DNA of 64,000 nt from Octopus sinensis. Taxonomy: Eukaryota. A program made the translations under genes and the position numbers. How positions within the stretch are numbered: the first letter of the stretch is position 1; every line of letters begins with the position of its first letter. Where the stretch lies: assembly GCF_006345805.1 (NCBI RefSeq), contig NC_043004.1, positions 24,614,001-24,678,000 on the forward strand. Direction: 5' to 3'. This document shows positions 180 through 58,014 of this stretch, piece after piece. The notes beneath the pieces were generated by a model. The model saw nothing but the letters and a program-made list of their open reading frames with translations, was not told the DNA's origin and did not search any database.

Positions 180-193
180 AAAGCGACAGAGTA

Positions 194-798
194 TTCTTTT
201 CTACTCTAGGCACAAGACCCGAATTTCGTTGGGAGGAGGCCAGTTGATTAGATCGACCCCAGTACGCAACTGTTACTTAATTTATTGACTCCGAAAGGAT
301 GAAAGACAAGGTCAACCTCGGTGGACTTTGTCTTTCATCTCAAACTCAGAACATAAAGACAGATAAAATACCTATTTCTTTACTTCCCACAAGGGGCTAA
401 ACACAGAGAGGACAAACAAGGACAGAAAAACGGATTAAGTTGATTATATCGATCCCGGTGCATAACTGGTACTTATTTAATCGACCCCGAATGGATAAAA
501 GGCAAAGTCGACCTCGGCGGAATTTGAACTCAGAACGTAGCGGCAGACGAAATACCTATTTGTTTACTACCCACAAGGGGCTAAACACAGAGAGGACAAA
601 CAAGGAGAAACAAATGGGTTAAGTCGATGATTATATCGACCCCAGTGCGTAACTGGTACTTATTTAATCGACCCCGAAAGGATGAAAGGCAAAGTCGACC
701 TCGGCGGCATTTGAACTCAGAACGCGGCGGCAGACGAAATACTTACTGCTAAGCATTTAGCCCGGCGTGCTAACGATTCTGAACAGCTCGTCGCCTTG
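194..798 (-). mobile_element. Composite family-A SINE trimer (one short-tail unit plus two long-tail units)
   Basis: Three B-box/core units with junctions at 372|373 and 556|557. Flanked by AAAGCGACAGAgTA (180-193) and AAAGCGACAGAtTA (799-812). Confidence 0.85.
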
Positions 799-1349: not shown

Positions 1350-1469
1350 TCATATATACATATATAATATGAGGAATATTATTCCAAACTTACAGGGAAA
1401 AATTCAATTTAAAAATACTAAATCAAATTTCACAAAATATAATATATATATATATATAAATTTAAAAAA

Positions 1470-3873
1470 AAACATCTTTTATCAAATAGGAGCTTTCTTG
1501 ACTTCCTGTTCGTCTCCTTTAGCTCCTCTTTTGTCTCCTTCAGGACTCCAGCGCCATACCGAACTACTGCGATTGCGCGCGAGTTTTTTGCCGAAATTAT
1601 GTTTCTCGCATTCAGCTTTGAAGCCAATATTTTTCTCACTCGCCACAAGTACTCTCTTTTTGCCTTTTCCTTCATGTCGTGGTGTTTGATTCCACCTGCC
1701 TCAAGTATTTCCAAGTATTTATAGCTGGATTGAGGTTGAATTGCCTTCATCATTTCACCACTTGGCAAACATATGCCTTCTGTCCATTCTTTCCTCGTCT
1801 TATCACCATCATAGCACATTTTGAGAGTCCAAACTCAATCTTAATATCATTGTAGAAACTCCGCACAGACTGGTCTAGGCTGTCCAGTTCTGATACAGTT
1901 TTTGCGAATAGCTTTAGGTTGTCCTTGAATAGCAAGTATTTCAGTTTTCCCTCACCTTTTCCCAGATCATAACCCAACTTTGTTTTCTGTAGTATTTCAC
2001 TCAAGGGGATCATTCCCAGCACGAATATCAGTGGGGACGCACTTGATTTTCATCTATCCTAATACTTGCTTCCCTGCTGTCAATTCCGTTAGTATTTCAG
2101 GCTATTCCATATCAGGTTTCTCATATTTTCTGCTACTCCATAAATTTCTATTGTTCTTATTATCCAGGAGTGTAGTATCATATCGTATGCTTAGTGATAA
2201 TCAATCCATGCCATGCTCAGGTTTGCATGTCTTCTCTTGCAGATCCTGATAATTAGACTATCAATTAAGAGCTGATCCTTCGTTCCTCGGTTCATTTCTT
2301 TGGCTCCCTTTCTGTTCAATGGGTAGCAACCCAATTTTTACCAAGTATCTATACAGTTCACCAGCTAAAGCATCTAACATTAGTTTCCACATTAGCGGAA
2401 GGTATGTTATTGGTCTAAAGTTGGATGCAACATTTCCTTTGTCAGGATCCGTCCCTTTGTCATCCAACTGAGTACTGCGCCTTGATGCAAGCACTCATCT
2501 CGCTGTTGTGCTATCCTTTAATGGATCCCTTTCAGCTTCTTCATCCAATAACCTTGTACTGCATCCGGTCCTGGGCTCTTCCAATTTGGGGATTTTCTTA
2601 ACTGCTTTTTCATCATTTCTGTAGTTATCTTTATGTCTTCTTGGACTTCTTTATTTCTTAAGCTATCTTGGGTTTCATGGAGCCACCCCGCTTCATCATT
2701 ATGCTGTACAGGCTGGTTCCAGATCCCTCTCCAGAATATCTTGCGTTCCTCTGCATCTGGTATCATTGTTACGTGTATATGCCCATCTAGTTTCTGAAAC
2801 AGTTTCTTCTGATGTGCTTCAAACAATCTGTGTTGCCGGAAGTGTCTTTTTCTATTGTCATATCTTTGATTGTTACTACTCTTTGTTTCAATTCTTCTAT
2901 CACATCATAACCTTTATCGCTTATTCTATATGTTCTTTCCAGCATTATTCTTGTGCTTTCGTTCTGCAATTCCCTTCTTCTCAATCTATCCACTTGTCCT
3001 AAATATCTTTTTAACTTTGTGTTATGTCGCAATACTACACAGTGGCTGCGTGAGCTACGAAATCATCGTCGCCATTGTTATATCGCACTTCCGATGCCTC
3101 TACTACTCTTCTCTCTACTGACTCTAGTCTGTCGACCTCTAGACTTCTCCCTCTATATCTACGTATTGGGCTAGCCTACTTCATCGTCTGGGGGCTCCCA
3201 CACAACACTTTGTTTCTCACAAATTCGTCTACGCCAGAATAGTTCTTTACGTTCTGTTTGTTCTTTTCTTTTGCATCCAACGCTATCTGCAGTAACCATA
3301 ACTGCAGCCCAAATAATCTTGTTAGTTTCAGAAATATTTCTCGTCTGGAAAAGCCCAAGAACCGAATCTACCTCTTCTGTTTCAACTTTGAGTTTGCGTC
3401 GATCCATGTACCTCAGGTTGGGAGGGGATGCTTGATCGTGGCCATTTCTCATATATCGACACAGCGTCCTCACCTCTGTCTTGTTGATCATCATCGTATC
3501 CTTGTGATATAGCTCATCGTATTACTTCTGCTTCATTTGCTGAGAATGCATTTACATTTACACTTTGCTCTACGTCTTCACTGCCGCCTTTCGTTTTTCT
3601 GTTATCACTGGGCACGATAACTGTTGGTGAAGTATTACTTCTATCTTCTACTTTCCTTTTTATCTCTTCTCTATTTTCCATGTCTGTTAACCACCTTTTT
3701 GCTCTTATTCCTCTTGCCCGGTCGACTGACCGTTGTTCACTTGTTTCGAAGAGTTCTATCTCATTCCATTTTGCTTTCATTCGCTGTCGGAATCCCCTTC
3801 TGCTGGGTTCACTCCTGATCCCGCATTCAGTTACCGTTCGGTTTGCCTCCTTATCCCACTTCTTCTCTGCTTC
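1470..3873 (-). mobile_element. R4/Dong-clade non-LTR retrotransposon, degraded, N-terminus through RT domain
   Basis: Fragmented ORFs give RGFRQRMKAKW...SEQRSVDRARGIR (Dong-like N-terminus), KSPNWKSPGPDAVQGYW, NFRPITYLPLMWKL, LLFKDNLKLFAK (degenerate YxDD region), FGLSKCA and YKYLEILE. Many stops and frameshifts. The 5' end abuts (TAA)n. Confidence 0.88.
3020..3207. mobile_element. Short solo LTR inserted in the Dong element
   Basis: 188 bp with termini TGTTATGT...ACACAACA (TG..CA, 7/8 inverted) and an exact 5-bp duplication CTTTG at 3015-3019 and 3208-3212. It interrupts the LINE reading frame. Confidence 0.72.
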
Positions 3874-3898
3874 ATTATTATTATTATTATTATTATTA

Positions 3899-3977
<79 letters not shown>

Positions 3978-4055
3978 GCAGATGTAACAGAGTGACTCAA
4001 GGACCGAGTAGTACGTTACTACATAAATTATTTTTCCTGTTTGCATCACCAAACC

Positions 4056-16972: not shown

Positions 16973-19207
16973 CATACATATAGACAGATGCAGGTATGGC
17001 TGCATGGTAAAAAGCTTGCTTCTCAACAACATGGTTCTGGATTCAGTCCCACTGCGTGGTACTTAGGCAAGTGTCTTCTATATAGCCTCGTGCCGACCAA
17101 AGCCTGTCGTATATATATATATACATACACACATGTATATATGTGTGTGTGTGTGTGTGTGTGTGCATGTGTTTGACCTCCATCGCCGCTTGAAAACCGG
17201 TGTTGGTATGTTTACGTCCCCGTAACTTTGAGGCTTGGCAAAGGACGATAAAATAAGTACCGCGCTTAAAAAAATATGTCCTTCTCTAGATTTGTTCGAT
17301 TAAAACCCTTCAAGGCAGTGCCCCAGCATGGCCACAGTCAAATTTACTGAAAGAAATAAAAGATAAAAGATATATAACCCTCATATGTGTGTGTGTGCAA
17401 GTATCTATCTATATATCTGTCTATCGATACTTACACACACACACAAACAGACACACAAACATACACATATATCAAGAGAATGAGCAGTGGGGGAAGACTG
17501 AGTGTTGATATAAAAGCATTTTATTTTAGCCATTCGAAAGCAGGCAGAAACTGTAAACTTCGCTTATTTAATTATTTAGTGTCAGGACTGTCGTCTTATT
17601 TTCGCTGACACAGCGCGACAGCAACTGCTTTGAAATTTACTTGCTGTCTAGTTATATACTAGGTCTCAGAGTTTTAAATTTAGATATTAAAATGTTGTAC
17701 CTTTAGCAAAGTTTAAGAAATAAGCCACAAATAAATTTGCAATTTGAAATTTGAAACTTTGCTTTGAAAGGCATGTCGTTGGACGTATATCTCTTCTTTT
17801 ACTGAAACACTTATAAGGTAGAAAATATTGCTTTGCTGGACTCAGTGGCAGACTGCTGTTTGTAAAGATTAGATCTGTCAAAGAGAATTACTGCTTAAGT
17901 AAATGAAAGGAATTGATAACAACTGAAATCGTTAACTGTATGGTGTACTTGGATTGTTGAGTGTTTGATTTTTACTGTGAAACACCAACTACATTTATTG
18001 TCAATATTTCTTTCCAGACTACATACTATCACTCTCAATAATTGATTATTCCCAGGTTTCAGCTTTTGTTGGGAAAATACAACTTTAGTTATATTTACTA
18101 TGTCACGTAGTTAAACATAAATCTGTTGAGGTATTGCTGCGTCCAGTGAGAGTGTTTAAAAGATGAAGTTTGTTAGCTTCAGCGAATATACTTCAACAAA
18201 CAGAATGAAAATAAAGATTTCTATCCAAACTACATAACGCTAAGTGCAGATAATAATAAAAATATTTGCGTTGTGGAATTAAGGCCGCTTTATCTGTGAA
18301 GCAGACGTGTGTCTAGAGTAAACCGGGGGTTTGCTATATTCATTATTTGTATTTAATTATATTTTGATCAGATTTAAACAAGGTCTTTAAAATTCATTGT
18401 TAGAATTGATCTTTTACCGTCAGTCAGACGAAGGAGGTGGTACTGAATATTGATGGATTAACGATTTGATGATTTCTTTCTTAACCGCAAAGAAAAGCAC
18501 TACAGTATTTTCTCTATTATAAGCACAAGGCCTGACATATTTGTCGAGGGGGCTAGTCAATTACATCGACCCCAGTGCTCACTTGGTACGTATTTTGTCG
18601 ACCCTCATAGTTTGAAAGATAAAAATCAACCTCGGCTGAATTTGAACTTAGAACTAATAAGCAGAGAGACAAACACAGTAGCTCCTTTCTTACCGCATAA
18701 TAGTTTAAAAGGAACGTAACAATAACTTTATATTCTTTCTACTCTTAGCTCAAGGCTTATGAGACGTAACTTAATATATAAAAAAAAACATTTGTTCTAT
18801 TTCTCACAGCTCTTTCCGACAGAAAACAAAAAGCAATATCATAAAACAATCATTCATTTTCCATCATTTTCTTTGATGGGAAACACTTTCTTCGTTTCTA
18901 TCCGTTTATTTGTGGTTTCTTATATCACGAAGCCAGTTAATATACAAAACTAATTATACTGTATGAGAGATAGATTACAAGCATGGCGTAAGACAATTTG
19001 GAGAAAAGGATTTATACAAGAAACTTGTTTCATTGTATTACAAAGAGAGAGAGAGAGAGAGAGGGGGGAGAATGATGCGGGATATATTACAAGTGAGTGG
19101 AGAAACGAAAACAAGTGCCACTATCAACACATGTATAGGGAATTGCATATATTTTGAATAACAGTTTAACTCAGCTTTATATGACTTAAACGACCACGAA
19201 GCTTCAA

Positions 19208-19483
19208 GACAGACGGAGTTAAGTCAATCGATCCCAGTGTGTAACTGGTACTTATTTAATCGACCCCCGAAAGGATGAAAGGCAAAGTCGGCCTCGGCGG
19301 AATTTGAACTCAGCCATTACGTTCTGAGTTCAAATTCCGCCGAGGTCGACTTTGCCTTTCATCCTTTCGGGGTCGATCAAATAAGTACCAGTTACACACT
19401 GGGGTCGATGTAATCGACTTAATCCCTTTGTCTGTCCTTGTTTGTCCCTTCTATGTTTAGCCCCCTGTGGGCAATAAAGAAAT
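19208..19483. mobile_element. Head-to-head inverted pair of family-A SINE fragments
   Basis: Arms 19208-19313 (-) and 19324-19435 (+) are separated by 10 nt. The plus copy continues into the long tail. Confidence 0.85.
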
Positions 19484-19521
19484 ATATATATATAGAGAGA
19501 GAGAGGGGGAGAGAGAGGGCG

Positions 19522-24464: not shown

Positions 24465-27400
24465 CGAGGGTCGGCTGAAGAATTCATAGGCTAAGATACT
24501 CTCATGGAATGTGGCCAAACGAGATTTAGCATTCAACACAGTCCCCATTGAGGTCCACACACATCTTCCATCGGTATTGCAGTACTTGGATCTCATTGGT
24601 GAAGAAGCTTTCATCTTATTAGTTAAAAACGTCATCATCACTGCGATATTGGTTACCAGCCAAGTGTTTTTTCACGTTGGGGAGCAGATGATGATAAGAT
24701 AGGGCCAAATCAAGTAAATAGGGATGGTAATCAACCAGTTCAAAGCCACAGTCACACACAACGGCCATTGAAACCAAGGAGCTGTGTGATGGAGCATTGT
24801 TCTGATGAAACAAGATCCCTTTCGTCAGTTTTCCTGACTGTTTGATTTTGACAGCCTTTCGTAACTGTCTCAGCAAGTTGGCATAGTACTCTCCATTGAT
24901 GATTTGGCCCCTACACAATTAACACAGTGCCTTTTGCATCCCAAAAAATTGAGGCAATCATATTCCCTGCCAATGAAGCGACCTTAGCTTTCTTTGATGC
25001 AGGTGAGAAGGGGTATTTTTCACTGCACAGTTTGTCTCTTTGTCTCTAGCTCAAAGTGATGAACCCAACACTTACACTGGCCTAGAAAACTTTCAAAGAA
25101 ACCAACTGGATCTGCCTCAAACAGTGTCAGATATTCCCATGATGTGATCATCCTGATGCACTTTTGAACAGATGTCAGAGGACGTTGCACTCACTGAGAA
25201 ATAACCTTCGTCATGCCAAATTTATTGCGCAGAATATCCTCAACTCTCTCACGGGATACGCTAAAAGCATTGACTATTTGATTTATAGTCGCCTGTCATC
25301 CATCAGTATGTGGTGAATACGATCAATATTTCCCTCTGTCATTTTCGAGATTCTTCGTTTTCCACCTAAATTCGGTTTCTCATTTTTCTACTGTTGGTAA
25401 AACTGGAGCATCGTCTCCTAATGCTGTGGTTCTCAACCTTTTCCCGGCCATCGCCCCCTAAAAGCTATTTTTGATGTAAGCTAATTGATAATCGCCCATC
25501 ACGAAATGATAACAAATATTAAATATAATGTAATTACGACTAATCAACACTAAAAAAAATTGTACATGTAAATGCAAAAGAAAAACGAATTAAAATAAAA
25601 CTTTATTCTAAATTTAAATGTAGAAAAGGACTAACTAGTGTGAGCCCTGAGATTGGTGATGTCACAATAAAAATTGAATGTCAGGCTCAATGCTACCCAA
25701 ACCGATACGAATACCTCCACGTGAAATAATGTCAGATCTGTTTCTTTCCTTCCGCAAAATGATTGACAGTACTAAATCCAGTTTCAACAAGATATCACGT
25801 CGGGAATCACAAAATAATTTTCGACATTTGTGACCACAAAATTGGATATAGTGATTTTACAGTGTCTGATTGCCAAAATAATGTATTGTTCGTCAGCATC
25901 GACACAAATTCTTCGGAAAATACGGTTATATATACTGTTAGATATAATTTTGTTTATTGTCTTTATAACAGTGTTCAACGACTGATTTAGAATAGGGTTT
26001 ATATATTTGGCCACGAGGTTATGCCTGTGTAGCACACAGTATATAACTAGAACTTGGTGGAACAACTTGTTTAAATGAGAGATAAATCCTCTGTGTCTTC
26101 CAACTATAGACGTTGCACCATGAGTAGCATATGAAACTAAATTTTCAAAATATAGAATTTATTTTTCTTCAAAAAACGTTTTCAGTGCAGAAAATATAGA
26201 AGCGCCCATTGTGTCAGTCTCCAACAGTTTTACAAATAATAAATCTTGGAATGCACAGTTTCTATCAAAATATCGTACATACCTCATTAAAAGGGCCTTA
26301 TTGTCAATAACTGTGCTTTCGTCAATTTGAATGGTAAAATTCGTTGTTTTTAATCTTTGAATTAGTACGTCTTCGATATGACCTGAAATTTCCTCAATTC
26401 TCCTACGGATAGAATCATTACTCAAAGGTAGAGTTTTAATGATAGATGAAGGATTTCGATTCATGACTTCTGTATGTGCACTAACTGTTTTTGCAATAAT
26501 TTCTGCAATTTTATTGGAAGCAATCAGTCCACCGTCATTAATTTTTGACTGTTTCTTAAATAATGATTTAACTGCACTCCAATTTTCAAAATCAGTTTTC
26601 AATCCCTCAAAATATTTGATAAGCTTACTGACTTTGGGTGGAGGTTCTTCTCATATGGTCAGAGAGTCGAGAGGGCTTCATGGCTTCATTGGACAAAGAT
26701 TGATGATACATGAGACAAAAATCTGCTTTGTATCTGTAGAGTTCTTGATAAAACCATATTGTAAGTGCTCATCGATATACTCTCGACACTTCTTTTTCGC
26801 AGAGCCTGCCATAAAAAGTGGGTGAGAACGAATGTAAATTAGTAAACACTAAACTGACTATTATATCTGCGTCCGACGGTTAAGAGAGAGAGCATCAAAT
26901 TCAGGCGAGTGCCGTGTATTCAATGAATCACGCAGCCCGGTGGCTAGTGTCATAGTAACAAGGGTAAGAATTTCAGTGATGAATGGGTCATTATAAATCG
27001 ATGAACTAAATCCTGGAGGATAACGGACTTATTGAGGTACATAGTTACTGTATTTGAATTAGGAAAAAAAGAGTTGGTTTTACGGCTTAACCACAGTTAT
27101 TGACAAGAACCCTTGTCGGGATGCACTGGATGCATGATTGCCTGTTGTAAGTACAGTCGTCTATCGAAAACTGCATTCATCGCCCCGCCACCAAATTTGA
27201 TTTTCGCCCCCAGTTGAGAACCACTGCCTTAATGTATCAACCATGTCAGCATAAATATCGTTGGTGGAACTAAACCTTTTTTCTGCAGGTACTTGATAAC
27301 ACAACGGTGCCAAATTCTGTCCATTTCCAAGAGAAGTCGCTATGAGTTACTTTTGAAGTCTTCTTTGGGCAGTCAGATATCAGTTTACCAGGAAAGAAAG

Positions 27401-30204: not shown

Positions 30205-30599
30205 TATACGTACATTGCATAGATAACTATGTGCGTAGATACGTACGTAAAGCAAGCTACACACGTCCGTGCAAAGCTTGACACACACATCAATAATTTA
30301 ATACCAAACCTTTGTGACAGTGTTACCTTTGTTACCTACAATAATAAATGAGACATTCTGTCTGTCAACCAAGAATGTTGTTCATCCTGCTGCCTTACAA
30401 TGATTTCCGAATGTCCCAGTGATACAAAATTCTCCATTTGTGATAATTTGTGATATAAATCTGAGAAGGTAGGATATCAATAACTGTTCTATTATTAGTG
30501 CCCTCTTCAGTTTGGGGCTAAAGGCCCAATTAGCACTTGCGGAAGCTAGCTTAAAAGTCCACATGGAGTGCGGCTTTTAAGGTAGTACATGTATGTTTG

Positions 30600-30772
30600 T
30601 GTGTGTGTGTGTGTTTACAGGCTCAGGAGTGGCTTTGTGGTTGCTTACAAACCACATAGTTCTGAGTTGAGTCTCGCTGCGTGGCACCTTGAGTAAGTGT
30701 CTTATACTATAGCTTCGAGCCGACCATAGCCTTGTGAGCGGATTTGGCAGACGGAAACTGAAAGAAGCCCGT

Positions 30773-30827
<55 letters not shown>

Positions 30828-31100
30828 AAGTGAATGTGTGTGCGTGTGTGTGTGTATCTGTGTCTGTGTTTATCCCCCACCATCGCTTGACAACCGATGT
30901 TGGTGTGTTTACTTCCCCGTAACATAGAGGTCGGCAAAAGAGACCGAGAGAATTAATACTAGGCTTACAATGAATATGTCCTAGGGTCGATTTGTTCGAC
31001 TAAAAGGCGGTGTTCCAGCATGGCCGCAGTCAAGACTTAGATAAAAGAATAAAAGAATATATATATATATGTGTAAGTATGTAAGTATATATGTGTGTGC

Positions 31101-31170
<70 letters not shown>

Positions 31171-31198
31171 ATTATTATTGTAAATATTATTATTATTA

Positions 31199-31245
<47 letters not shown>

Positions 31246-31770
31246 CATTATTAAGGTAGCGAGCTGACAGAATCTTTAGTACGCCGGACAAAATGCTTAG
31301 CGGCATTTCGTCCGTCTTTATGTTCTGAGTTCAAATTCTGCCGAGGTCGACTTTGCCTTTCATTTTTTCGACGTCGATAAATTAAGTACCAGTTGAATAC
31401 CAGAGTCGATGTAATCGACTTATCCCTGCCCCAAATTTCAGGTCTTGTACGTACAGTAGAAAGGAGATTATTATTGTTATTATTGTTGTTGTTATTATTA
31501 TTATTATCATTATAATTATTATTATTATCATTATTATTATTATCATTATTATAATTACACACACGCATGTATATTACGTGTGTGTGTGGTGTGTGTGTGT
31601 GTTTACAGGCTCAGGAGTGGCTTTGTGGTTGCTTACAAACCACATAGTTCTGAGTTGAGTCTCGCTGCGTGGCACCTTGAGTAAGTGTCTTATACTATAG
31701 CTTCGAGCCGACCATAGCCTTGTGAGCGGATTTGGCAGACGGAAACTGAAAGAAGCCCGTTGTATATATA

Positions 31771-31824
<54 letters not shown>

Positions 31825-32097
31825 AAGTGAATGTGTGTGCGTGTGTGTGTGTATCTGTGTCTGTGTTTATCCCCCACCATCGCTTGACAACCGATGTTGG
31901 TGTGTTTACTTCCCCGTAACATAGAGGTCGGCAAAAGAGACCGAGAGAATTAATACTAGGCTTACAATGAATATGTCCTAGGGTCGATTTGTTCGACTAA
32001 AAGGCGGTGTTCCAGCATGGCCGCAGTCAAGACTTAGATAAAAGAATAAAAGAATATATATATATATGTGTAAGTATGTAAGTATATATGTGTGTGC

Positions 32098-32159
<62 letters not shown>

Positions 32160-32180
32160 TATTATTATTATTATTGTAAA

Positions 32181-32243
<63 letters not shown>

Positions 32244-32573
32244 CATTATTAAGGTAGCGAGCTGACAGAATCTTTAGTACGCCGGACAAAATGCTTAGCG
32301 GCATTTCGTCCGTCTTTATGTTCTGAGTTCAAATTCTGCCGAGGTCGACTTTGCCTTTCATTTTTTCGACGTCGATAAATTAAGTACCAGTTGAATACCA
32401 GAGTCGATGTAATCGACTTATCCCTGCCCCAAATTTCAGGTCTTGTACGTACAGTAGAAAGGAGATTATTATTGTTATTATTGTTGTTGTTATTATTATT
32501 ATTATCATTATAATTATTATTATTATCATTATTATTATTATCATTATTATAATTACACACACGCATGTATATT

Positions 32574-36185: not shown

Positions 36186-36267
36186 GTCGTCGTGGTCGAG
36201 TGGTTAAAGCGATGGATTAGAAATCCATTGGGGTCTCCCCGCATATGTTCGAATCCTATCGACGACG
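36186..36267 (+). tRNA. tRNA-Ser(AGA), degenerate, probable pseudogene
   Basis: 82 nt. Perfect acceptor stem GTCGTCG/CGACGAC plus discriminator G, anticodon arm ATGGA-TTAGAAA-TCCAT, Ser-type variable arm GGGG-TCT-CCCC, T-loop TTCGAAT. There is one C-A mismatch in the D stem, one T-C mismatch in the T stem (ATATG/CCTAT), and no T-run terminator nearby. Confidence 0.85.
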
Positions 36268-36285
36268 TTGATTAATAACTTATGT

Positions 36286-36702
36286 AGGCGTAGGAGCCGC
36301 TGTGTGGCAAGTAGCTTGCTTACGAACCACATAGTGCTGGGTTCAGTCCCACTGCGTCGCACCTTGGGCAAGTGTCTTCTTCTATAGCCTCGGGCCAACC
36401 TAAGCTTTGTGAGTGGATTTGGTAGACGGAAACTGAAGGAAGGCCTTCGTATATATATATATATATATATGCGTGTGTGTGTATGTTTGTGTGTCTGTGT
36501 TTGTCACACACCCCCAACATCGCTTGACAACCGATGCTGGTGTGTTTACATCCCCGTAACTTAGCGGTTCGGCAAAAGAAACCGATAGAATAAGTACTAG
36601 GCTTACAAAGAATAAGTTCTGGGGTCGATTTGCTCGACTAAAAGCGGTTCTCCAGCACGGCTACAGTCAAATGACTGAAACAAGTAAAAGAGTAAAAGAG
36701 AG
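36286..36702 (+). mobile_element. tRNA-derived CORE-type SINE, family B (octopus OR-like), full length with internal microsatellite
   Basis: tRNA-like head with GGTTCAGTCCC B box, CORE motif ACCTTGGGCAAGTG, internal (TA)n(TG)n, and tail GACTGAAACAAG(TAAAAGAG)n. Confidence 0.88.
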
Positions 36703-37236
36703 TAATTATGCTTGTGAATATAATATAAGACACTGAACTAAATAATTGGCTATATTCTTCTCTCAACTGTTCTCAATGTTTAGCTGGGTTGTTTTTTGAA
36801 TCCTTATATGAAGAAAGGTAAATATCAACCTACGTAAGAACTGAACATAGAATGTTGAGGTATATTTTTCTGTTGTCTTTTTTTGTTTTGTTTTTTAGTC
36901 AGGAAGGAAGGCAGAGTTCATGACTGATAGTGGGGAAGGTATCTGAAAACAAAAGACCTATCCTTAATACTTGCAACAGAGTGCACTCAGCTAAAGACAT
37001 CCAAGGTGCCGGGTGGTGATGTTAAACTGGGTGGTAGATTAAGTCTATCACCCAAGTAGTCCATGACGGGATTTGAACCCAGAAAGCAAAGATACTGAAT
37101 AAATATCACAAGGCACTCGGTCCAGCATGCTTACAGCTCCGTCATTGATAGTTTTCTAGCGACCCCGAAAAGCTGAAAAGCAAAGTTAACTTCTTTAGAA
37201 TTAGTACTCAGAACGAAGGGATTCAGAACAAATACC

Positions 37237-37639
37237 TATTTCTTTACTACCCACAATGGTCTAAACACAGAGGGGACAAAGAAGGACAGACAAACTGATT
37301 AAGTCGATTATATCGACCCCAGTGCGTAACTGGTACTTAATTTATCGACCCCGAAAAGATGAAAGGCAAAGTCGACCTCAGCGGAATTTGAACTCAGAAC
37401 GCAGAGGCGGACGAAATACCTATTTCTTTACTACCCACAAGGGGCTAAACACAGAGGAGACAAACAAGGACAGACAGACGGATTAAGTCGATTATATCGA
37501 CCCCAGTGCGTAACTGGTACTTAATTTATCGACCCCGAAAGGATGAAAGGCAAAGTCGACCTCGGCGGAATTTGAACTCAGAACGTAACGTAACTAAGAA
37601 TTTCGCCCGGCGTGCTAACGTTTCTGCCAGCTCGCCGCC
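37237..37639 (-). mobile_element. Young long-tail family-A SINE dimer inserted in an older SINE
   Basis: Two units with a junction at 37420|37421. TSD TCAGAACAAaTACC (37223-37236) / TCAGAACAAgTACC (37640-37653). The diverged host SINE continues on both sides. Confidence 0.85.
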
Positions 37640-37681
37640 TCAGAACAAGTACCGAGTGCCATTTTATCCGACGTTCTAACC

Positions 37682-37944
37682 CAGTGGTTCTCAACCAGTG
37701 GCCACATGGCCCTTGGGTGGCGGGGTCCAATAAAAGAGTTTGCTTTTAAAATTTATGTACAATGAATTGTTTCTATTTCAACAATACACAAAATATTCTT
37801 ACATTTTTATACAATTCCTAATGATATTTAATTATAAAAATATAATTGGACATTTTAAACATTGAATGGGTATGAGGGAAGGTCTAGTAAAGTAGAATGG
37901 GAATCAAAAGAGTCCATAGGCAAAAAAACGGTTGAGAAACACTG
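37682..37944. mobile_element. hAT/Buster MITE
   Basis: 263 bp with TIRs CAGTGGTTCTCAACC / GGTTGAGAAACACTG and 8-bp TSD TTCTAACC / CTCTAACC. No ORF. Confidence 0.88.
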
Positions 37945-39042: not shown

Positions 39043-39044
39043 TG

Positions 39045-40895
39045 TTTCTTTATTAGCCACACAGGGCTGCACACAGACAGGACAAATTACAAGGTAGAGC
39101 TTTTCTTTTGGTTTTCGATCAAAAGGGATCGTAAAAGGAAAGAAAGAGGACAAAAAAAGGGGGGATAAAAAAGAAAAAAAATCGATCAATAGGGATCGTT
39201 ATCACAGAAATGTCAATATAAGGTGTAAAGGGGAGGACAGGTGAGATTTACCCGTGGAAAGAAAAGCCTACGGAAAAGACCACGGTAACCTCGGTCAATG
39301 AAGTCACATGTTATATTTTTTTACAAATAAGCAAGTCTCTGTATTAATTTTTACGGTTCATAGGATCATAGTCAAGGTGGCTTCGTCATTCATACGTGCC
39401 ATCCTTGCTACATTCACCCATCTTTTTTTAAAACATTCACTAGACAACACTTGCCTCTCTACTCTCACTTTCCTCTTCAAGTGATACTTGAAGAAGTTGA
39501 TGAGAGATTGACCAGAGAGGAAAGTGTTTGTCTCTAATCCTTTCAGGCGCGTCCACCAGATACATTCTTTCGCCATAGCCACAAGTATGATAAAAATAGC
39601 TCTTCCTTCCCGTTTGAAGGAAGGAGGCGTGACGATATTAACGATAGACTCGGCTGATAAGCCGACACGTCCCACATGTGACAGCAGTGGTTCGACATAA
39701 GCCCACAGGTCGGAGGTTGTTGGACACTGCACGATTGCGTGCAGAACGGTTTCGTCGCTCTGCCCGCATCTCGGGCAGGTCGGCCCCGTATTTCTCGAGC
39801 CATGCCTATAGAGCTTATCCCGAACGGGTAGCGCTTCTCGGTAGCACTGCTAGGCCAGGGATCTCTGGAAGTTGTCCATAGGTCCCGGCCCGAAAGTCGT
39901 TTCAAACAGGCGGGTCAGGTATTCCTCGTCGACGCCCAGGTTTGCTCCAAGATCCCCTCCACTAATCCCCTATAGAATGCTTTGGTTGTGTTGAAGTCAC
40001 TCAAGGTCGACCCGGGACGGCAGAGTTGCTTGAAAGCAACGCGACACTCGTGGTGCCATTCGCCCTTCCTCGGCCTCTTTTTGATCCACGACAGCAGTTC
40101 GGTCATGGAGACGAGCTGCGGGAACGCGTGCCTCACAAACGGCGACCACACCTGTTCACCGTTGTCTACATAGAGCCGGAGATGTCGCAGTCTCAACGCG
40201 TGTCTGCGCATCATCAACCACGGCATGCCCACCCCTCTTTTTAACGGGTGTTGACAGCAAATGGATCGCCTGACCATCGGGACGCATCCTTTCCACAAGA
40301 AGCGGAAGAGAATGCGTTCTAGTTTGGTGATGGTAGGGTCGGGACAAGGTACGACGGTCAAGCGGTAGTAGATGATGGACGCGATGTACGTGTTCGCCAC
40401 CTCCGCCCGACCTTTTAGGGACAGTTTCCTCTCGGCCCAATGCTGGGCGAGAGTGACCACCCTAGTCATTATCTCGTTCCAGTTCTTCTCCATTTGGAGG
40501 TCCAGTCCGAACCAGACCCCGAGCAACTCAACCGGGCCGTCCGTCCAGCGTCCCACGACGGAGGTACTGGTGGGCGGCATGGGCTTGCTTCTCCAGGTGC
40601 CGAGCCGCAAGCCCACTGACTTTTCCTGATTGATTTTTGCTCCTGTCACCGCTTCGTAGTCTTTCAGTGTCTCGCCGACCAGCTCGATGTGCTCGTGGCT
40701 TGAAACTATGACGGTGACGTCGTCCGCGTATGCAGACACGCTCGTCTCGCATCCCAATTCTCGCGGGATGCCCCTCAGAGTCGCCAGCTTCCGCAGTAGT
40801 GGCTCGAGAGTCAATACGTATAGAAGCGCTGAGAGGGGGCATCCCTGACGGACCGAACGTGCAATGCCGAAAGGTCTCGATAGATGTCCATTTAC
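39045..40895 (-). mobile_element. 5'-truncated Tx1-like (L1 clade) LINE, young
   Basis: SVRQGCPLSALLYVLTLEPLL, SAYADDVTV, GAKINQEKS, LSLKGRAEV and a C-terminal CPRC...HAIVQC zinc finger. One frameshift near 39950 and one TGG>TAG stop. ORF ends at 39358, followed by a ~310-nt 3' UTR ending AATAAAGAAA next to (TATC)n. GC-rich relative to flanks; possible 5-bp TSD ATATG. Confidence 0.93.
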
Positions 40896-42182
40896 ATATG
40901 ACGGTGGACGATTGTTGGAACTCGCCTAGTGATATTCCTGAGGTCCACCACTCAAGAGTATTCATCCAAACGCATATTCATCGGAAGTTAGACAAAAACG
41001 ATGATATAATTTGTTTGTGGAGTTTTACTAGTTTTTCAGTAGAATTTTAAGAAAACATTCTGGTTTTGAAGAAAAAATGATTTCTAATTATGGTTGTATG
41101 TTATACTGTGTTCTTCATAAGCTGCTTCATGGAAAGAAAAAAAAACAATGAAATTCTATGGATTTTAAGTATCTTAAAAGCTTGACGGAATGGTAATAAA
41201 TGAATGTCATTTTCGGATTTTTTTAGTCAAAAACATTTAGTTCAGGTCCAAAGTTTCAGACAGTGGAGAAAGTTTTTGTTTTGTTTACCTATATAATTCA
41301 TATATTTGTAGAGATTTACATAATAAATACAGCATGATGACATGATACCACCAAGTTCACTGTAAAACAGGGTAGAGTAGGACATAAGATAGATATGTGT
41401 ATACCTGTGTGGCGAATGGACTTATGGATATGTTGAATCACTTTAAACCACATACATTGACACACACTTGAACCAACAACCTCTGTATATCTATTCCGAA
41501 ATCGAAGAATTTACTGATTCGTTGACTTGTGTCAGATTTGTCCGCTCTCGTTTTGGGTAGCTCTTCTCTGAGCACCATCTATGAAATCACATAACCAGCA
41601 CCGTAAATATGTCGTGTATTTCAGTTCAATTTTATAATTAATACTGTCAAAAATCGCATAAAACATACACATTACTTAGCATTATTTTATAAATTCAGTT
41701 TTAAAACTACGAATAAAAACATCTCGTGGTTGTCTGCCTCAACAAAAACCTTATTTAAAGATCTAAAATTTAGTTAAATTAGTAATCCACGGGGAGAAGA
41801 GAATTGCTGTTTTGGAGCAAGTCCTTCTATCAATTTTGATACCACGAGATAATCTCTTACAGTTTAGTTATACTCCAAGCAAGATAATTCTGAATTTCAA
41901 ATTTGATTTCCCGTTGAAATTAGTATTACAATTTCACAAAGCATCCCTGGCAAAACTAACATCAACAACTAGCTCCCTATCATCCCTCAAAATATCCACA
42001 AAATCTGCACTACTGCTAACAACAACATAACCATTAATGTTAACGCACGGTCACAAATTTTGTAGTCAAGAGTAGGGCCGTTTACATCGAACCCCGAATG
42101 TGTGACTGGTATAAGACTGTAATGGAAACTGCAACATGGTGCGAACTGATTAAAGGCAGAATCGACTTCGGCAGGAAATGTA

Positions 42183-43408: not shown

Positions 43409-44204
43409 TGTATGTATGTATGTATGTATGTATGTATAGCGAGAAATAGGGTTATTAACAGTTACAAACAGAAATTCTGTCTAGCTTAATAACATTAATA
43501 GAAAAATAAAATATAACGTCTTGTGCTATTTGGTTATGTCCCTTTAAATTCGAACTTCGAATCCCGCCATTGTCTACTTTGATTTTTTTTTTTTTTGGAG
43601 GAGGTGGATTTTTACTATCATTTTATTGTTCATAAATTAAGAACCATCCACGTCCAAAGTTCATTCAAACCAACCATACTCCTTTCCTATAGTACATGAC
43701 CTCGAATCAGTGAAACGTGCACATTCAGTCACAAAGACGGGAAAAATTACAGCAATGTAGGTGTCTATGACTGTTACCATTATTTTATCCTAAGACTTGT
43801 AAAAAAAAACATCCAATAATAAATATTATATGTGAAGGTTGCCAAACAGCAACCAATGGTTAGGTAGAAAAGCAAAATAGTAGAGCACCCTTGCTCACAG
43901 ATATAGTAGAGACTTTGAAATAATGAACAGAAAACTTGTGAACCAGTACAGAACTTCACACACACACATTCTGTCTTTTAGTAGAATCTTCCTAAAAATA
44001 AATTGCAGCAAGTAAGTTAAAACTTAAAAGTTCTATTGTCAAATACATACAACATCGAACTCCGAGTACAAATTCTCTCATCTTAAGCTCATAGAGGTAA
44101 TTAATAGTGTTGCATTTATTATAGAACAGAGAAGAAAGATAACAACAAAAAAAGCTCATCACGAAAGATACAACTATGCCATGCTCCAAAAGTAAACAGC
44201 TTAC

Positions 44205-44964
44205 CTGCTATATCTGTACTGATTCCTTTTAATAAAACATCCTTTATATTTAATCCACCATTCTCGAGAATGTGAAAATGATATGATATATTTTCCTTCG
44301 TTAACTGGAAAGCAAGAGCTGATACAGTGAAAAAGCAAAACCTAAACGTAATGGTATCCAATCCGTTGCTGTTGTAAAGAACGTAAACTTTTCTCCAGTT
44401 GTAATAACGAAATATACTGAGTAGTGAATCGCTCAGACCATTGAAAGTAATTCCAACTCGAGTGAGACTTCCAAACTCAGTTTTATCTTGGAAATCATGA
44501 GCCATACCTCCCGGACTAATCACTGGTATATTCCAATAGAAAGAATAGCGACTGACTGGAGCCAGAGCATATTCACAAACAGGGCCGAAGAATATATCGA
44601 CTTCATTGTTCATATAGAATTTAAAAGCAGCCAGTGGGGGTTGTGTCGCATCGCATGTGACCCCATGGTAGTTCACCTTGATACGAATTGACCTTAAATT
44701 ACCTGAGTGCATGACTTTTTCTATCGCTAAATCGATAGCTGGAGAAATTCGATCTATAGAAAACATCAAACTATTATTTGTTGATACCAACACAGCGATT
44801 CGAACTTCTGTAACATTTAAATCTACCGTGTCATTATGCGTAGCGCTATTATCACGTTTCCCGAACCTGTGGCGACGCGGCTCCGTTTGAAAAGGTTCCG
44901 TAAAATATAAGTAAGTTTGTAACGTCAGGTAGATAAAAATCCAGGTGTGTTTCTCCTTCTCCAT
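44205..44964 (-). CDS. First coding exon of a natriuretic peptide receptor / receptor guanylyl cyclase-like protein (ANF-receptor ligand-binding ectodomain, N-terminal 253 aa)
   Basis: ORF 44119..44964 encodes a hydrophobic N-terminus followed by IAVL...SIDRISPAIDLAIE, TCD, FFGPVCEYALAPVSRYSFYWNIPVISPG, LTRVG and YNWRKV, all typical of NPR/rGC ectodomains. Similarity stops at a canonical donor GCAG|GTAAGC after 44205 (760 nt, phase 1). This exon alone cannot distinguish a cyclase (NPR1/2-like) from a clearance receptor (NPR3-like). Confidence 0.92.
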
Positions 44965-45139
44965 CTCATTAATCCGAACAATTACTAGACTAAGTCCAGC
45001 AACAAATGTTTTGTCTTGTTATGCTTATATAGCTTTATATTATTCATCTCTTTATATTTTTCATCCTCTTTCTTTCTCTAGACATCAAATAAACTTGGAT
45101 AATTCAGTGAGTCAGTGTACTGTTGTAATAATGTATAAG

Positions 45140-57431: not shown

Positions 57432-58014
57432 CTCTCTTTCTTTTACTCTTTTACTTGTTTCAGTCATTTGACTGCGGCCATGCTGGAGCACCGCCTTTAG
57501 TCGAGGAAATCGACCCTGGGACTTATTCTTTTTAAGCCCAGTACTTATTCTATCGGTCTCTTTTGCCGAACCGCTAGGTTACGGGGACGTAAACACACCA
57601 GTATCGGTTGTCAAGCAATGCTAGGGGGACAAACACACACACACACATACACACATATATATATATATATATATATGTGGTGTGTGTGTGTGTGTATGTG
57701 TGTGGTGTGTGTGTGTTGTCCCCCTAGCATTGCTTGACAACCGATACTGGTGTGTTTACGTCCCCGTAACCTAGCGGTTCGGCAAAAGAGACCGATAGAA
57801 TAAGTACTGGGCTTAAAAAGAATAAGTCCCAGTATATATATATACACATACGACAGGCTTCTTTCAGTTTCCATCTACCAAATCCACTCACAAAGCATTG
57901 GTCGGCCCGAGACTATAGCAGAAGACACTTGCCCAAGATGCAACGCAGTGGGACTGAACCCGGAACCATGTGGCTGGTTAGCAAGCTACTTACCACACAG
58001 CCACTCCTACGCCT
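57432..58014 (-). mobile_element. Family-B SINE with internal inverted duplication
   Basis: Standard copy plus an exact inverted 117-bp segment (57516-57632 versus 57716-57832). Confidence 0.88.

Follow-up and report, generated by a model that had tools for sequence, protein, structure and literature searches.

Why do copies of a long-tailed SINE repeatedly end at the same nucleotide inside other copies of that SINE? The question arises from the window analyzed here, a stretch of 64,000 nucleotides of the Octopus sinensis genome (NC_043004.1, positions 24,614,001 to 24,678,000). An earlier note on this DNA had proposed that the SINE is driven by a Tx1-type LINE, that it targets its own family, and that the junctions stem from insertion rather than from slippage of tandem copies. 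We compared the junctions in the window with those in the rest of the genome and asked what selects the site.

Anatomy of the junctions

The SINE lies on the minus strand and consists of a head of ~49 nt and a 184-nt unit with GGTATTT at its start and GAAATA at its end, the whole element measuring ~233 bp. It is short, dispersed, present in high copy number and flanked by TSDs (median 15 bp), all traits of SINE2-type elements. The head carries motifs that we take, by eye against the box consensus, to be A-box- and B-box-like, and the junction site is located between these promoter boxes. ARAGORN made no call on the SINE heads, and Rfam returned no match at E<=5 for the one intact copy tried; judged by its box-like head motifs, the SINE may be of the tRNA type. 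An exact search of the window for AAATACC|TATTT returned four matches, at 372|373, 556|557, 37236|37237 and 37420|37421, together with one unrelated match containing a mismatch. The count made in the earlier note, with four of five long-tail units adjoining this junction, is thus reproduced, and the fifth unit ends otherwise. The parts are:

191..372, minus strand: older short-tail SINE body, starting from GGTATTT
373..556, minus strand: head-less long-tail unit of the left-edge array
557..796, minus strand: long-tail SINE head and unit, first member of the left-edge array
19317..19484, plus strand: fifth long-tail unit, 5'-truncated, followed by TATATA and so off-site
37157..37236, minus strand: old host SINE body, resuming at the site, 78% identical to the young copy over 59 nt
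37223..37236: 3' copy of the 14-bp TSD, TCAGAACAAATACC, beginning GGTAT on the SINE strand
37237..37420, minus strand: second long-tail unit, head-less, 184 bp, GGTATTT ... GAAATA
37421..37639, minus strand: young long-tail SINE, head and first unit, the head without a GGTATTT site of its own
37640..37653: 5' copy of the 14-bp TSD, TCAGAACAAGTACC, one mismatch to the 3' copy
37654..37681, minus strand: old host head remnant, read by eye, interrupted by a MITE and matched by an orthologous-looking contig from a second organism
39043..40925, minus strand: LINE-A, a 5'-truncated L1/Tx1-like LINE with a tail related to that of the SINE, followed by (CTAT)n

The TSD copies at 37223-37236 and 37640-37653 agree at 13 of 14 positions and enclose a head-unit-unit dimer (37237-37639). 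With host sequence present on both sides, the host at 37237 is indeed an older, diverged SINE, as had been claimed. This junction (37236|37237) is the only one of the four in the window to have an inner TSD. The left-edge array (191-796) contains a single head, two long units and an older short-tail body, and its 11-bp outer repeat (180-190 and 799-809) extends from the head to the short tail. Flank contigs from the second organism fit an empty site, which we regard as a hint: in two of three runs (three studies), a contig of 331-333 nt matches the window up to 37643 and continues with ~140 nt unlike the young head, leaving 37622-37641 uncovered, and in the third run 37622-37641 is covered and the 331-333-nt contig is absent from the listing. 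The MITE in the old host head (37682-37944) is a high-copy element, presumably hAT-like; its inverted ends are of the CAGTG type, and the two copies of the 8-bp repeat that flanks it agree at 7 of 8 positions.

Generic repeat finding in the window was swamped by microsatellites, and several other features were noted individually. An exon-like ORF with an ANF_receptor domain (44119-45018, minus strand) is likely part of a guanylate cyclase of the natriuretic peptide receptor type, and the SINE arrays downstream of it may be intronic. ARAGORN calls a tRNA-Ser at 36186-36267, beside a different abundant repeat (36281-36700); this call is probably the head of another SINE family. A perfect inverted repeat of 117 nt with an 83-nt spacer is found at 57516-57632 and 57716-57832. 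The minus-strand segments 1430-3996 and 25784-26650 are presumably remnants of RTE/Dong-like LINEs and of a pair of transposase-like ORFs, all of them decayed.

Occupancy of the site across the genome

In the 2.72-Gb genome, the exact long tail is found 80,468 times and the tail followed by GGTATTT 33,391 times, with no match to a reversed control. The repeated junction is thus a non-random feature of about 40-41% of long tails genome-wide, a share that is approximate because the exact-tail pattern extends 4 nt farther in the 5' direction than the pattern that includes GGTATTT. We assembled a junction-unbiased sample from 30 loci of 3 kb and 53 of 10 kb (the first listed C1 tail matches), 7 neighboring 10-kb stretches and the window; a 10-Mb portion of one chromosome contributes most of it, and arrays enter the count several times. 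Its 138 tails end at the SINE site in 51 cases, at a second head site (C|AGAAAC) in 4, at one other SINE position in 1 and in non-SINE DNA in 82. Among the 51 site junctions, 36 are array-internal and followed by a long unit, 13 are terminal without an inner TSD, and 2 are terminal with one. A TSD could be assigned to 45 of the 82 tails in non-SINE DNA; 45 of the 47 TSD-flanked insertions in this sample are hence located outside SINEs and 2 in the SINE site. Target-specific elements have nearly all their copies at one position, and the 82 tails in non-SINE DNA set the SINE apart from them.

At short-type copies with a well-conserved site, a long tail lies upstream 2,271 times and an intact head 826 times; since the two flanks differ in age, these counts show heavy occupancy and give no precise fraction. 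The second, weaker stacking site C|AGAAAC maps to SINE head position 16, in the A-box region (L018, L029, L095, L185, L223, L266), and is used by long SINEs with a GCAA tail and by short-tail SINEs.

The site is the best match to a degenerate insertion motif

We next considered full heads nested 3-25 nt behind a given 9-mer. There are 213 such cases genome-wide behind GCGGTATTT, compared with 39 behind a B-box 9-mer and 7 behind an antisense near-motif, yet in 664 kb these two controls are 3.5 and 2.4 times commoner than GCGGTATTT (109 and 73 versus 31 occurrences). Thirty of the 213 loci were viewed; all have a long tail, and they correspond to 25 distinct sites, which we classified by eye into 10 sense SINE hosts with the body resuming after the tail, 7 sites in unique DNA, 2 in antisense SINEs and 6 head duplications. 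As 15 of the 25 fall into the latter three classes, the enrichment in true SINE hosts is below what the number 213 implies, but it remains several-fold per copy. The TSDs of the 10 sense hosts are mostly host-specific. Retroposition has a genuine hot spot at this junction, with independent, TSD-flanked insertions into diverged hosts.

The preference for this position can be read from insertions elsewhere. In 88 TSD-flanked insertions into non-SINE DNA, the TSD begins directly after GAAATA, position -1 is C/T in 62 (G in 5), +2 is a purine in 83, +3 is T in 67, and +4 is A in 74. The insertion motif of the SINE is thus degenerate, Y|DRTAT. A matrix made from these 88 TSDs ranks the C|GGTATT site first among positions on both strands of the SINE, with 40% of the weight, followed by the antisense near-site with 23%. 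Intact head sites hold 0.7% of the motif weight in the sampled DNA, or 2.1% for G-type targets, yet they received 2 visibly nested copies among the 47 TSD-flanked insertions, and 15 of the 100 junctions that are terminal. The motif accounts for the position, and the excess together with the sense bias suggests an added effect of homology. The SINE is a loose targeter, and the site is the best Y|DRTAT match that it contains. The proposal that the SINE targets its own family therefore stands in so far as independent TSD-flanked insertions occur at this base in diverged hosts, but not as near-exclusive use, with 45 of 47 TSD-flanked insertions outside SINEs.

A second LINE lineage occupies the site strictly

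LINE-A, the LINE found in the window, is young and abundant; it has APE, RT and zf-RVT domains, and its endonuclease matches human L1 EN structures. We considered it as a partner for the site and rejected it: none of 30 copies is located there, all continuing into TATCT-like sequence and most into (CTAT)n. A pattern joining a LINE-A-like tail to the site gave 199 matches, and the 30 that were viewed comprise 28 SINE tail variants, 2 short tail stubs and no LINE. LINE-A is thus probably not the partner.

A second L1/Tx1-like lineage, LINE-B, is joined to the SINE site and has a near-identical tail. Thirty loci were viewed of 339 tail-pattern matches, and all 21 LINE tails among them are at the site, with C as the first base in 13 and G in 8, one of them after a short extra piece. 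The full-length copies (3 of 3) are found between a host head and a host body, with the same first target base on both sides, and their front carries ~16 nt of SINE-like site sequence. LINE-B thus behaves as a target-specific non-LTR element, by its 21 tails as well as by its 3 full-length copies. Its ORF2 is open over 1134 amino acids and is 56% identical to that of LINE-A (48% in the endonuclease). Pfam domains PF03372, PF00078 and PF13966 are present in both lineages, and zf-CCHC in LINE-B ORF1; the arrangement of an ORF2 with APE endonuclease, RT and zf-RVT downstream of an ORF1 is that of L1/Tx1-group LINEs. A protein search for a clade name returned 18 relatives, none of them named Tx1, and our use of the Tx1 label for LINE-A and LINE-B is an assumption based on their habit.

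The tails of LINE-B and of the SINE are identical at 29 of the last 40 nt without gaps and share a similar predicted terminal hairpin. Based on this resemblance and on the common site, LINE-B or a sister lineage is likely to supply the enzyme of the SINE. Two observations speak against a simple pairing: at the site, G is the first base of 46 of 49 SINE junctions, whereas C is frequent in this position in LINE-B, and the GCAA SINE tail, which is closest to that of LINE-B, rarely occurs on G-type targets (1 of 21). The idea of a Tx1-driven SINE is hence supported in so far as an L1/Tx1-like LINE has a common tail and site, but this LINE is not the one present in the window.

Array growth and re-copying

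Adjacent long units have 90 of 440 rare variants (20%) in common over their whole length, compared with 2-5% after shuffling, and long-on-short pairs have 32 of 525, near background. Adjacent long units are equal in age (29 versus 21, p=0.28). In 19 of 42 long-long arrays a TSD is found at the end of the last long unit, and these arrays were therefore copied as one unit or grew inside such a unit. Multimers have thus also been re-copied whole or duplicated locally, as can be seen in part, and this swells the junction count to ~40% of tails. Most junctions show a single head without an inner TSD, and many lie inside re-copied or duplicated multimers. Duplication thus contributes, but the young-on-old chimeras and the host-specific TSDs distinguish the arrays from a pure SINE-derived satellite formed by local duplication only. 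The preference of the earlier note for insertion over slippage is borne out for the TSD-flanked insertions, the diverged hosts and the young-on-old arrangement, but it does not extend to the many junctions inside such multimers.

Three other kinds of duplication were observed. Head-only tandem arrays with units of 65-105 bp and at most 6 copies form a second kind of SINE-derived repeat (L043-L049 (G000 C1), also C4, C6 and C7). At 19207-19484 of the window, a 5'-truncated SINE unit is duplicated head-to-head in inverted orientation, with a similar case in L002; the window copy may be a fold-back or twin-priming product. The segments ~30580-31420 and 31570-32420 of the window are a near-identical duplication of ~1 kb with identical short-tail SINE copies at 31259 and 32257, either a recent tandem duplication or an assembly artefact.

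Young units sit on old SINE bodies

Twenty-four chimeras consist of a head, a long unit and a short body, and in 21 of them the 3' body is older than the 5' unit, with 3 showing the reverse. Median divergence is 9.5% for the 3' bodies and 3.7% for the 5' units, and solo short and solo long SINEs have 9.9% (n=51) and 3.7% (n=86), respectively. A second set, derived from 70 pattern-selected junctions of 2,271 matches, contains 47 chimeras and has few loci in common with the first; here, the 3' body is older in 37 of 46 and younger in 3 of 46. Nearest-neighbor divergence is 11% among chimera 3' bodies and 10% among random short SINEs, and since the bodies are no closer to one another than random copies are, they are not descended from a small set of masters. 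Chimera heads, at 3.2% divergence, are young, and a variant that is present in 0 of 51 solo short SINEs occurs in 6 of 23 of them.

No nested head with an inner TSD was found at 47 readable junctions of the pattern-selected set, and an outer TSD reaching from the head to the short tail is present in 23 of 32 chimeras, about half of these TSDs being perfect. Pooled mismatches in outer TSDs amount to 26/417 in chimeras (6.2%), compared with 19/633 in solo long (3.0%, p=0.013) and 30/396 in solo short SINEs (7.6%, p=0.49). Counts of perfect TSDs fail to discriminate (17 of 32 chimeras versus 31 of 46 young SINEs, p=0.24), and some chimeras may thus be re-copied read-through RNAs rather than in-place head swaps. 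Taken together, the chimera data lean toward in-place insertion with replacement of the host head, the alternative being re-copied read-through RNAs from many source loci. Head-single chimeras were also searched for TSDs concealed in their first 20 nt, which revealed no rule (7 of 68 rare variants in common), with one clear case in L023. In L245-L270, short-tail SINEs with older bodies carry young long-type heads without a long unit; head conversion, collapsed chimeras or an effect of pattern selection are possible explanations.

Target preference follows SINE lineage

SINE targets fall into G, T and A classes that track the SINE lineage (p=1e-5). GCAA tails are found on 14 A, 6 T and 1 G targets, and 13 of 19 GTAA tails on G targets. 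Among GTAG monomers, one head lineage uses T-type targets in 10 of 12 cases (TA-type), and the others divide into 8 G, 4 T and 2 A of 14. Either an inherited 3' read-through or different partner LINEs, also acting at different times, could give rise to such lineage-linked classes. The age difference between the classes is not significant (p=0.34). For RNA-templated bases we examined TSD asymmetry: relative to the class tag, the 3' TSD copy is the closer one in 12 cases and the more distant one in 7 (p=0.36), and the excess of mismatches at TSD positions 1-5 (42/450 versus 32/810) is biased by anchoring on later positions. Pol III terminates at a run of four Ts, and as the majority SINE unit has no such run, Pol III read-through is plausible. 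For R2Ol, the account in PMC6530143 describes target sequence at the RNA 3' end that anneals to the target and raises insertion; the pairing and joining steps of the model below are patterned on it.

A model for insertion and its alternatives

The mechanism that we favor, with some reserve, is one in which this putative tRNA-type SINE with an L1/Tx1-type tail uses the enzyme of the LINE found at the same base, in which joining occurs in register, and in which arrays grow by one head-less unit each time. Insertion would begin with a nick biased to Y|DRTAT-like sites, a motif that we observe and that a putative LINE enzyme would read; C|GGTATT in the head is the best such site in the SINE. We infer that transcripts of copies at the site read into GGTATTTCGTC... 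and pair with the nicked strand, which would favor the sense-strand site. Owing to its homology with the host head, the new cDNA would usually anneal in register by its 5' end and replace that head, yielding the arrangement of head, unit and old body without an inner TSD that is found in the chimeras. Less often, joining out of register would produce a nested head flanked by a TSD, the arrangement found in the window. Whole re-copying or local duplication of the multimers, seen in part in the arrays, would complete the process. Going further, the system might be a closed loop, a reading that we put forward tentatively: the SINE would be a landing site for its partner LINE and for itself, lineages would inherit their target class via the few bases that their master reads through at its 3' end, and hits would overwrite old, decayed promoters with young ones. 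The hundreds of thousands of dead SINE copies would then act as docking sites that can be re-activated, a part of this joint reading that is no less speculative.

The position of the junction may require no more than an enzyme. If one or more Tx1-like endonucleases nick their own motifs, the best of which in the SINE lies in the head, head-single arrays could arise later by read-through re-copying or recombination, without RNA pairing. Several observations agree with this: the motif by itself selects the position and reaches outside the TSD to the preference for C/T at -1 (62 of 88, G in 5), beyond what RNA pairing explains; GCGGTATTT is also used in unique DNA (7 of 25 sites); at least two LINE lineages have different strict targets; and the templating test is not significant. 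However, the antisense site has more than half of the motif weight of the sense site, yet 7 nested heads against 213, and intact head sites with 0.7-2.1% of the motif weight receive 15 of 100 terminal junctions. Moreover, with the same tail subtype, one head lineage is TA-type (10 of 12) and the rest are mostly G-type (8 of 14). Endonuclease preference as the sole cause thus appears rather unlikely to us.

The variants common to adjacent long units (90/440, shuffled 2-5%) and their equal age, the TSD at the last long unit of 19 of 42 arrays and the 36 of 51 site junctions that are array-internal in the unbiased sample would all be expected if one or a few multimeric master copies had spread by tandem slippage or unequal crossing-over, the site being no target. 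Such masters cannot yield young units on old, mutually unrelated short-tail bodies (shared rare variants 32/525), nor host-specific TSDs in diverged hosts, nor 21 of 21 LINE-B tails at the base. They account for part of the junction count and not for its origin; a single multimeric master, the case that could have undone the original proposal, is refuted as the sole cause, and we consider this explanation highly improbable. Little credence can also be given to a chimera formed before integration, with a reverse transcriptase that starts on a short- or long-tail RNA, stops at the base and switches to a long-tail RNA, resuming at its 3' end. Such template switching would agree with the lack of nested heads with an inner TSD at 47 junctions and with the outer TSDs of 23 of 32 chimeras, about half of them perfect. 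No cause was found for a stop at this base, though, DNA-level insertion at the same base is evident from the nested TSDs and from LINE-B, and the outer TSD mismatches of the chimeras are nearer to those of old SINEs.

The octopus elements offer a natural example of what seems to be one machinery with two behaviors: the LINE is confined to its site (21 of 21), and the SINE inserts loosely, into three target classes that go with its lineages. Control of target choice by enzyme or by RNA in APE-type LINEs thus becomes directly testable, and the presence of intact LINE-B copies makes assays feasible. Should the head swap prove real, it would let young SINEs rejuvenate old loci with no new insertion sites added, and it would distort the dating of SINEs and the calling of subfamilies in octopus genomes.

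Relation to known elements

SINEs account for ~12% of the DNA in octopus genomes, and the 2026 repeat annotation of Octopus vulgaris describes active L1-Tx1 families and many unclassified SINEs; nesting of SINEs is not mentioned in the examined text of that annotation (PMC13282606). In the main text of the openly accessible literature, we found no account of the present SINE system.

The closest parallel is found in crocodilians, where SINEU and Tx1-Mar are described as having a common preferred site in an abundant repeat, with a SINE preference ranging from strict (90%) to weak (13-23%), and with tandem copies (Kojima 2015, PMC4494074). As in the octopus, a SINE and a LINE lineage thus meet at one site in an abundant repeat and form tandem copies. 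In the crocodilian case, however, the target is a third element, Mariner-N4_AMi, and a TSD separates the tandem copies, whereas here the target is the head of the SINE itself, and the junctions are mostly seamless with one head. The same paper lists APE-type LINEs with strict repeat targets, namely Tx1L in Tx1D, Keno in U2, and Kibi and Koshi in microsatellites (PMC4494074). LINE-A resembles Kibi and Koshi and LINE-B resembles Tx1L, a likeness of habit. Unlike in these elements, the target of LINE-B is a SINE with a LINE-B-like tail, such that target and passenger would be one family.

The self-insertion hot spot at position 133 of Alu is likewise reported to be confined to a single nucleotide, sense-biased and located in the element's own family (Levy, Schwartz and Ast, PMC2836564). 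In Alu, the site borders an A-rich linker and the partner L1 lacks site specificity; the octopus site lies between the promoter boxes, is occupied by a strict LINE and is found at the end of ~40% of tails. R2, as described for R2Ol (PMC6530143), differs in its restriction-like endonuclease and its rDNA target, and pairing has been shown there, whereas for the octopus SINE we infer it. Head-to-tail arrays of SINE parts are also described for the SINE-derived satellites of squamates (PMC10702118) and the tandem SINEs of blood clams (PMC11481361); in those accounts they are ascribed mainly to unequal recombination, whereas the octopus arrays have a fixed insertion site, TSDs and a co-targeting LINE as their seed. 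Each part of the octopus system thus has a precedent, and what is new is the proposed loop that unites target, passenger and tail donor, together with the probable seamless replacement of the head.
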